Positions 15,718 to 17,005 of a DNA stretch of 64,000 bases are shown here, one piece after another (position 1 is the stretch's first letter; every line of letters starts with the position of its first letter). The position numbers and the translations under genes are program-made. The notes under the pieces are model-generated. The model was not told the DNA's origin. It searched no databases and saw only the letters and a list, made by a program, of their open reading frames with translations. The DNA is from Candidatus Zixiibacteriota bacterium (GTDB lineage: Bacteria > Zixibacteria > MSB-5A5 > GN15 > FEB-12), in contig JBFMGC010000004.1 in assembly GCA_040752815.1 (NCBI GenBank), positions 2,551 to 66,550 of the forward strand, written 5' to 3'.

Positions 15718-17005
15718 TATTGTCTTCCGTATTTGCTCAGGTATTCGCCTACCAGATAATGCGAACCTATAATGGCTATGATATCACTTGGATCGGCATT
15801 CTCCAAGAGTCGATCATAGGCCATTTCGAAGCGGCTAAACCTCTTGACGGGCACTCCGTGCCAGTCAAGAGCGCTCACCAGTTCCCTGGTGTCGACACTT
15901 CGCCCCGTTTTGAGCGGAACGAGCCGGAAGCTGTCGGCGACCCTGGCCAGATGGTCGATCATCTCCTGATGGGCTTTCCGCTTCACGAAACCAGCGATGA
16001 TCGATGCTTTTCGGCCGGGAAAGACCCGCTTGAAAGTGTCGACAAACGCTGCCGCCCCACCCGGATTGTGGCAGACATCGAGCACCACAACCGGCGATCG
16101 GGCGCCTTCCCGAACGATTTGGAACCGCCCGGCCCAAACGGTATGCTCCACGCCACGTTTGATCGCGCGGCCCGACAGCGATATTCCCTGCCGTCTCAAA
16201 ACTTCGACCGCTTTCAATACAACCGCCGTGTTGCGCAACTGGTGCGGACCTCTGAGCGCGGGCGTCAGATTCTCGAACCGCGAATCATCCGAATGGAAGC
16301 TCAGCGTAAGCTGCTTCATATCCGCGGAGAAGTCACCGTGCCTGAGGGTCACTAGCTCCGAGCCGCGCTCACGGCAAGCGGCTGCTACTACGCGCCGTGC
16401 TTCCCGCGGCAGCAAGCCGATTACATTTGGGACGCCCGGTTTGATTATACCCGCCTTCTCGCCGGCGATCGCCTCGAGAGTCGGCCCCAGGATCTCGACG
16501 TGATCGTAGTTGATGTCGGTGATGATTGTCAGCGCCGGTTTGAGAACGTTAGTGGCATCGAGTCGTCCGCCAAGTCCGGTCTCGATGACGGCTACATCAA
16601 CCGCCTGGCGGGCGAAATAGTCGAACGCCAGCGCCGTGACTAGTTCAAAGAAGGAGAGTTTTTTTTTACCAGCGCGGTGCGATGACTATCGACGTAGCGT
16701 GCTACCGCCTGCTTCTTAATCAGACTTCCGTCGACCCTTATCCGCTCGCGAAAGTCAACGAGATGCGGCGAGGTAAACAGCCCGGTTCGGTAACCGGCCC
16801 GGCGAAAGATCTCAGCCAGCATGGCTGAACATGAACCCTTGCCGTTGGTACCGGCCAGATGCACGGTCAGGTACTTACGCTGGGGGTTGCCACGTTCTTC
16901 GAGGTAATCCGTAATATTCTCCAGCCCGAGTTTCATGCCGAAGAACTCGCGCGAGAGAATGAACCGCTCGGCCTGCCGATAGGTGTGGCGTCTCACTTTC
17001 TCCAC
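15717..17005 (-). pseudogene. folC: folylpolyglutamate synthase / dihydrofolate synthase, interrupted by a 1-nt frameshift in a homopolymer
   Basis: The N-terminal ORF (16640-17005) has HLAGTNGKGS. The C-terminal ORF (15717-16415) and the open frame upstream of it encode [16 protein letters not shown]...[14 protein letters not shown]...GEKAGIIKPG. The frames switch at the T9 run at 16659-16667 (A9 on the coding strand). Ten A would give continuous ...[15 protein letters not shown].... Confidence 0.85.

Follow-up and report, generated by a model that had tools for sequence, protein, structure and literature searches.

Division of folC between two reading frames

The folC gene of a Candidatus Zixiibacteriota bacterium lies on the minus strand of a 64-kb stretch of contig JBFMGC010000004.1 (64,000 nucleotides (nt), the whole of the DNA analysed, hereafter the window) and changes reading frame part-way, at a run of nine A's. 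The run occupies 16667-16659 on the coding (minus) strand, equivalent to T9 at 16659-16667 on the plus strand, and the minus-strand sequence over the junction reads ...CGC ACC GCG CTG GTA AAA AAA AAC TCT CCT TCT TTG AAC TAG. Frame 0 opens with a GTG start at 17005, proceeds to ...HRTALVKKNSPSLN and ends at a TAG stop (16642-16640), and the -1 frame is open from the junction down to the stop at 15719-15717. The complete span (17005-15717) measures 1289 nt, leaving a remainder of 2 on division by 3, and addition of one A yields a repaired folC of 429 codons plus stop. The gene is composed of the following elements.

16659-16667, minus strand: A9 run (T9 on the plus strand), GT-A9-C on the coding strand, where folC switches from frame 0 to frame -1
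16668-17005, minus strand: folC 5' segment in frame 0, from GTG 17005 to the GT of Val113, holding the P-loop LAGTNGKGS
15717-16658, minus strand: folC 3' segment in frame -1, beginning at CTC (Leu117) and ending with the stop at 15719-15717, with LSFFE... and the Mur ligase C domain
16640-16642, minus strand: frame-0 stop TAG, terminating the 121-residue unslipped product

The initial annotation of this DNA had placed a T9 run at the break, with the N-terminal frame ending just after it, the FolC core carried on to 15717 in the other frame, and a single 429-codon gene restored by one extra A; all of this is present in the window, and the repaired gene product matches the folC family. Without slippage, the frame-0 product is 121 amino acids (aa) long, including a 6-residue out-of-frame tail, and ends 16 nt past the run; a family search with this fragment on its own returned no family match.

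The A9/T9 run is the longest homopolymer in the window (58% GC) and the sole run there of at least nine bases, against a chance expectation, by our own estimate, of ~0.1 A9/T9 runs per 64 kb at this GC content. Among the other runs of at least seven bases in the window, none coincides with a broken long reading frame. No second folC is found within the 64 kb.

Identity and annotation of the repaired protein

The repaired 429-aa protein matches TIGR01499 (folC) with 377.8 bits (cut-off 162.65), covering profile positions 1-397 of 400, and contains the Pfam domains Mur_ligase_M and Mur_ligase_C. Alignment to 27 full-length Zixibacteria FolC proteins is gapless across the junction, where their consensus is ELxxRKLSFFEV. 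Of the two conserved catalytic motifs, both retained, the P-loop GTNGKGS is encoded by the frame-0 segment and the second block by the frame -1 segment, and columns that are invariant or near-invariant among homologues are retained. The best 120 database homologues, the fragment from the same metagenome-assembled genome (MAG) set aside, are single proteins of 405-469 aa. In the window FolC is not encoded in one continuous frame, the frame changing at 16659-16667. The nearest full-length FolC among 5.8 billion proteins shares only 61% identity.

In the NCBI annotation of the Candidatus Zixiibacteriota MAG (132-kb contig), the gene is represented solely by a 304-aa "Mur ligase family protein" (P0001, 16631-15717), whose annotated start is the CTG at 16631 (Leu126), with the loss of conserved residues. 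Exact look-ups of the 121-aa N-terminal product and of P0001 in the contig index gave no match for either. Annotation pipelines would wrongly score such genomes as lacking an intact FolC, and completeness checks, pseudogene counts and metabolic reconstructions of Zixibacteria should treat the site as a recoding event.

Recurrence of the frame break across Zixibacteria

A scan with the repaired protein as query, covering a single genome for each GTDB species, returned 80 loci. In 27 of them, tblastn recovers folC as two segments, in frame f and then f-1, changing at query residues ~114-120. In each of these 27 broken loci the junction reads GTAAAAAAAAA, next C, G or A, and after that TC (rarely TT). 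A scan of metagenome contigs by the motif GTAAAAAAAAN{1,3}TYWCNTTYTTYGA yielded 113 stretches, of which 35 lie on folC-encoding contigs, and 33 of those 35 have the identical frame break. Of the remaining two, L193 has its motif outside folC and the other encodes a distant in-frame folC unrelated to the site. The motif matches outside folC-encoding contigs that were inspected are all unrelated chance matches. The comparison of run length with related genomes that the initial annotation had called for thus reveals the same out-of-frame run in 27 GTDB loci and 33 metagenome contigs.

Pooling the GTDB loci, the metagenome contigs and the window gives 61 sequences, which form 54 clusters at 97% identity. 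These 54 distinct sequences comprise 40 with A9+C, eight with A9+G and six with A9+A; all are out of frame and none is in frame. In the A9+A carriers the run is ten long, gene length is unchanged and the gene is still out of frame, the next codon being ATC (Ile) and not CTC (Leu). In the -1 frame, the base following the run (C, G or A) makes the codon Leu, Val or Ile, and in frame 0 the codon preceding GTA varies at its third position; together, these two patterns of variation show a three-base periodicity that switches frame exactly at the run. No in-frame A10+CTC form occurs among the folC matches of the metagenome motif scan.

The carrier contigs originate from many separate projects, and their names indicate MEGAHIT and SPAdes short-read assemblies as well as other pipelines. 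They include a 3.84-Mb chromosome-length record (L058) and a contig with 2069x coverage in its name. FolC identity of the carriers to the window falls as low as 46-50%, indicating that the site is old.

Proteins that already carry the repaired junction in frame (VKKKL) were sought with an 84-column junction profile against the 5.8-billion-protein set, which returned just fragments of 93-147 aa, with VKKK read in 0 of 17; these fragments resemble FolC of other lineages, and since the short profile returned no full-length FolC, this negative does not amount to absence.

In all 54 carriers the codon that directly follows the run (window 16656-16658) is NTC or NTT, and its third position is far less variable than that of the corresponding Leu codon of in-frame relatives (CTG, CTT, CTC, TTG or CTA). 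This restriction hints at a requirement for particular flanking bases. An early frame-0 stop was also considered as a carrier-specific trait and rejected: it falls 16-19 nt past the run in 23 of 28 carriers, but in 32 of 52 in-frame relatives (62%) the equivalent frame closes just as early.

Selection on the gene and on the run

The ratio of non-synonymous to synonymous substitution (dN/dS) was calculated by the Nei-Gojobori method for 12 pairs of related loci, over 300 nt upstream and 240 nt downstream of the run. The upstream part in frame 0 gives 0.02-0.11 and the downstream part in frame -1 gives 0.01-0.13; the proportion of synonymous differences (pS) reaches ~0.7, that is, synonymous saturation. 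In frame 0 the downstream part shows the reverse, with the proportion of non-synonymous differences (pN) exceeding pS. The low dN/dS of each segment in its own frame, together with this inversion, indicates that both segments have been translated in their own frames for as long as the lineages have been diverging, which excludes a pseudogene. All 27 repaired genes are free of stop codons and of further lesions.

Elsewhere in the same 28 genes, lysine is encoded by AAA (53%) and AAG (47%), and merely 13% of valine codons are GTA. At the site, GTA AAA AAA AA shows zero variation. The run itself is, as judged from these comparisons, selected at the nucleotide level. Nine-A tracts should gain or lose an A in replication far more often than ordinary sites mutate. 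For so mutable a run to be out of frame in 54 of 54 sequences, and in frame in none, suggests that the shifted state is favoured rather than merely tolerated or accidentally frozen. The folC A9 run is therefore best described as a real, old, conserved and apparently selected recoding site.

An upstream hairpin in a subgroup of carriers

Eleven related sequences share a 9-bp hairpin, ACCGGTAYC-N4-GRTACTGGT, that ends exactly at the GT abutting the run.

22 nt directly 5' of the A-run: hairpin loci L055, L057, L062-L067, L070, L073, L074, L125 and L150

Within this subgroup 97% of cells are paired, and compensatory changes occur at two pairs (for example L057, ACCAGCACC/GGTGTTGGT; L070, ACCGGAA/TTCTGGT), a test biased by the derivation of the structure from the same sequences. 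As a general feature of the site the hairpin was rejected, since over 28 sequences 70.5% of cells are paired, compared with 68.4% in shuffles (23/500). The mRNA stretch immediately upstream of the run is covered by the ribosome. The geometry of the hairpin could act in the exit channel of RNA polymerase and not inside the ribosome. We regard it as a suggestive trait of the subgroup alone, not as proof.

Transcriptional slippage as the probable route to full-length FolC

The main route to full-length FolC is probably slippage of RNA polymerase that adds one A. In this mechanism, the genomic frame, one base short inside GTA-AAA-AAA-AA(C), would be compensated only during expression: RNA polymerase would slip on the nine A's (nine T's in the template), part of the transcripts would acquire an extra A, and ordinary translation would read these A10 transcripts as a single 429-codon frame. 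Unslipped transcripts would give the 121-aa truncated product, and full-length FolC would arise solely from events compensating the missing base. A smaller contribution of -1 ribosomal frameshifting on A_AAA_AAA may coexist, giving the same protein. By analogy with other systems, the efficiency of slippage would be in the tens of percent.

The site has the sequence properties expected for slippage: the frame changes exactly at a homopolymeric A run of about nine, which is A9 or A10 in 54 of 54 carriers and is conserved despite synonymous turnover, with purifying selection in both frames. Bacterial RNA polymerase slips efficiently at nine A/T, as in Thermus dnaX, and the RNA-DNA hybrid is nine to ten bp long (PMC5009743). 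Poly-A cassettes from magnesium chelatase genes change frame in an E. coli reporter at 10% (7 A), 40% (9 A) and 63% (11 A) (PMC3711429), and in endosymbiont genes with poly-A frameshifts the correction reaches ~30% of transcripts (PMC3017870).

The best-surviving alternative, which we consider unlikely, is that full-length FolC comes mainly from programmed -1 ribosomal frameshifting on A_AAA_AAA, formed by the first seven A's of the run, with the mRNA remaining A9. The -1 direction fits, and both routes give the identical V-K-K-K-L and the identical protein. The frame-0 phasing GTA AAA AAA AAN places a canonical X_XXY_YYZ heptamer in the correct phase, A_AAA_AAG occurs as a second heptamer in eight lineages, and these two heptamers constitute 72% of those in -1-frameshifting insertion-sequence elements (PMC4066793). 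Stimulators of the kind that accompany such heptamers are not conserved, however. The 70 nt after the run fold no more stably in carriers (mean folding energy -14.7) than in the in-frame controls (mean -15.4; p=0.71) and yield almost no consensus structure; a Shine-Dalgarno-like tetramer 4-20 nt upstream is found in 2 of 28 carriers versus 13 of 52 controls. Stimulator-free heptamers in E. coli reach only 2-10 fold over a 0.055% background (PMC4066793). Seven A's would suffice for frameshifting, yet nine are invariant: the ninth is never G in the carriers, though a G there would preserve Lys in the -1 frame (AAG) and leave the first heptamer intact. A nine-A run is, moreover, expected to provoke slippage of RNA polymerase anyway (PMC5009743). 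The length of nine A's, the ninth A that is never G and the lack of a conserved stimulator together favour slippage over ribosomal frameshifting, in agreement with the rescue by transcriptional slippage that the initial annotation had listed among its explanations.

Several points weigh against slippage as the main route. The run contains good -1 slippery heptamers, A_AAA_AAA throughout and A_AAA_AAG in the eight lineages, and unstimulated frameshifting might suffice for an enzyme of low abundance. The argument from the ninth A concerns a single nucleotide position in mutually related sequences. The upstream hairpin is absent from the window, its closest relatives and most carriers. Finally, the overlap of folC with the upstream accD gene is also present in in-frame relatives, so this overlap alone does not explain the break.

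Other explanations of the broken frame

Split enzymes exist in other families, and the C-terminal part of FolC is annotated by NCBI as the separate P0001. It is nonetheless very improbable that the enzyme is assembled, without recoding, from the 121-aa N-terminal product and a C-terminal product translated from its own start. Between its upstream stop and the run, the -1 frame contains no ATG, GTG or TTG in 27 of 28 loci, and canonical starts first appear 27-414 nt downstream, at a position that varies and past the conserved KLSFFE motif. The CTG start of P0001 likewise drops conserved residues, and a split gene leaves the invariant A-run unexplained.

A recent pseudogene, or a phase-variable on/off contingency locus operating through DNA slippage, is extremely improbable. 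The nine-A run is mutation-prone in replication, and a single-genome view, from which the initial annotation had raised both a plain pseudogene with further lesions and a population-level phase-variable indel, cannot separate these states. The wider comparison does: all 54 distinct sequences are out of frame, leaving no run-length variation of the phase-variable kind at the level of assemblies and no in-frame A10+CTC form, and dN/dS is at most 0.13 in both halves, a sign of strong purifying selection. FolC is also a core metabolic enzyme, unlike the surface and restriction-system genes in which phase variation is usual (PMC3711429).

A homopolymer sequencing or assembly error concealing a genomic A10 and an intact folC, also suggested initially, deserves next to no credence: single-base homopolymer errors are a common artefact and the window is MAG sequence, but the same one-base deficit recurs in 54 distinct sequences from assemblers and read types that, by their contig names, are varied, the 3.84-Mb record and the 2069x contig among them, no other long frame in the window is broken at a homopolymer, and an in-frame A10 would have no reason to hold the GTA and AAA codons fixed amid saturated synonymous sites.

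In-frame relatives and gene neighbourhood

In-frame relatives encode the equivalent residues (usually x-K/R-R-K) by mixtures such as AAG CGG AAG or AAA AGA AAA, with no long run. The closest in-frame folC genes (L004, L194 and L195) have AAG GTG AAG or AAG CGC AAG at the site. In a neighbour-joining tree of FolC, the carriers fall together on one side, poorly resolved. A strict single-clade origin of the carriers was rejected, as exact monophyly is recovered in 3 of 100 bootstraps of this single-gene neighbour-joining tree, and 76 of the 100 bootstrap trees place in-frame L004 inside the carriers. The site may have arisen once and occasionally reverted, or the carriers may be sister to the in-frame group; L004, L194 and L195 may be revertants or a sister lineage. 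A tree of one gene does not separate these two histories.

Many of the closest FolC relatives (L002, L004, L005, L007, L009 and others) are labelled 'uncultured Ignavibacteriales', and the carrier L055 is labelled 'Candidatus Acidoferrum sp.'. Taxonomic mislabelling or faulty binning in the source records probably accounts for these names.

The genes flanking folC are the following.

16993-17835, minus strand: accD (acetyl-CoA carboxylase carboxyltransferase beta subunit), Pfam Carboxyl_trans and Zn_ribbon_ACC, directly upstream of folC
14341-15717, minus strand: GAF/HisKA/HATPase histidine kinase gene, downstream of folC, its ATG within the shared TAATG

The overlaps with the neighbours on both sides, as initially described, are confirmed: folC begins at 17005, in overlap with the accD stop (16993-16995), and its own stop shares TAATG at 15717 with the ATG of the gene that follows. 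The gene order tsaB-rimI-accD-folC-kinase is common to the window and the in-frame L194 and L195, and the accD-folC overlap is kept in broken and in-frame loci alike; this overlap is ancestral. Two sensor genes follow folC at 12195-15717 (minus strand) with a 56-nt overlap, the GAF/HisKA/HATPase kinase and then a 733-aa frame whose counterpart in relatives contains response-regulator, GAF and kinase domains. Since this arrangement is kept in L194 and L195, folC may be co-transcribed with a signalling module.

Elsewhere in the window, T8 runs (A8 on the minus strand) at 22226-22233 and 61015-61022 lie in the first codons of two long minus-strand frames, 20988-22244 (which would begin M-I-K-K-T) and 58953-61052, both intact.

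Possible role and significance

A plausible role of the site would be to lower the dose of FolC relative to the overlapping upstream accD. We also entertain, as a rather doubtful proposal, that the out-of-frame A9 is a selected and tunable control point at which the share of transcripts gaining an A is set by RNA polymerase kinetics, which could respond to ATP versus the next nucleotide or, in the subgroup, to the hairpin. If true, the amount of FolC made, and through it the folate-dependent synthesis of purines and thymidylate, would follow nucleotide supply, and the site would be a metabolic regulator working by slippage within a core biosynthetic gene of free-living bacteria. Its logic would then be comparable to that of the autoregulatory prfB frameshift and of UTP-sensing reiterative transcription.

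Obligatory recoding of non-mobile cellular genes in bacteria is known from a small number of cases, among them prfB, dnaX, magnesium chelatase and some secretion-system genes. No earlier report of folC recoding, of frameshifting in Zixibacteria or of slippage in MAGs was found in full-text literature searches, a 2016 recoding review or large surveys. The 54 natural variants, including the hairpin subgroup, provide a ready series for separating transcriptional from translational slippage.

Comparison with known recoding systems

Slippage at nine A's in Thermus thermophilus dnaX (Larsen et al. 2000, as cited in PMC5009743 and PMC3711429) resembles the folC case in that a chromosomal housekeeping gene carries exactly nine A's in the mRNA sense, polymerase adds A's, and the mixed transcripts are read in different frames. 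The two differ in gene and phylum and in the consequence of slipping: the genomic frame of Thermus dnaX encodes the long tau and slippage yields the short gamma, both functional, whereas the genomic frame of folC gives a truncated and probably useless product, and slippage would be required for the one functional protein.

The magnesium chelatase cluster (Antonov et al. 2013, PMC3711429) is likewise a non-mobile cellular gene in two frames at a conserved poly-A in the -1 direction, with fused single-frame homologues in relatives and a frame change of 40% for the A9 cassette in E. coli. It belongs to another family and other taxa, and its run ranges from 7 to 11, compared with the fixed nine in folC. 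The mechanism was left unsettled in that study (PMC3711429).

In Buchnera and Blochmannia (Tamas 2008 and Wernegreen 2010, as summarized in PMC3017870), one-base poly-A indels in essential genes that are otherwise intact are conserved between species without decay, and full-length protein is obtained from slipped transcripts, at ~30% according to the same summary. The endosymbiont genomes, as described there, are AT-rich, reduced and under strong drift, with many such sites per genome. The folC carriers share the conserved one-base poly-A indel in an intact gene, but not the AT-rich, reduced genome with many tracts: they are GC-rich (58% in the window) with megabase genomes (3.84 Mb in L058), a single long homopolymer occurs in 64 kb, and the break is kept over much deeper divergence, with FolC identity down to ~50%. 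They are taken to be free-living from their environmental-metagenome origin.

The -1 frameshift of E. coli dnaX (A_AAA_AAG) shares with folC an A-rich heptamer in a chromosomal gene, the -1 direction and a stop soon after in one frame. It differs in its upstream Shine-Dalgarno sequence and downstream stem-loop, neither of which is found in folC carriers, and in that the shift makes the shorter product.

Shigella flexneri mxiE and spa (Penno et al. 2005, 2006, as cited in PMC3711429) are similar in that the functional protein needs slippage at about nine A/T joining two frames; as presented in that account, they are type III secretion genes of a virulence plasmid in a single species, unlike the core metabolic folC of a deep clade. 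The Roseiflexus insertion sequence (PMC5009743) has a terminator-like nascent-RNA hairpin that ends at the slippery run, as in the 11 folC sequences, but its T5C5 motif needs the hairpin to slip, whereas A9 can slip unaided.

The folC site differs from these known cases in encoding a core folate enzyme, in that only the shifted product is complete, and in residing in GC-rich, megabase environmental genomes. With it, recoding reaches central metabolism in bacteria that are free-living and GC-rich, and it has been kept throughout a deep clade within an uncultivated phylum.

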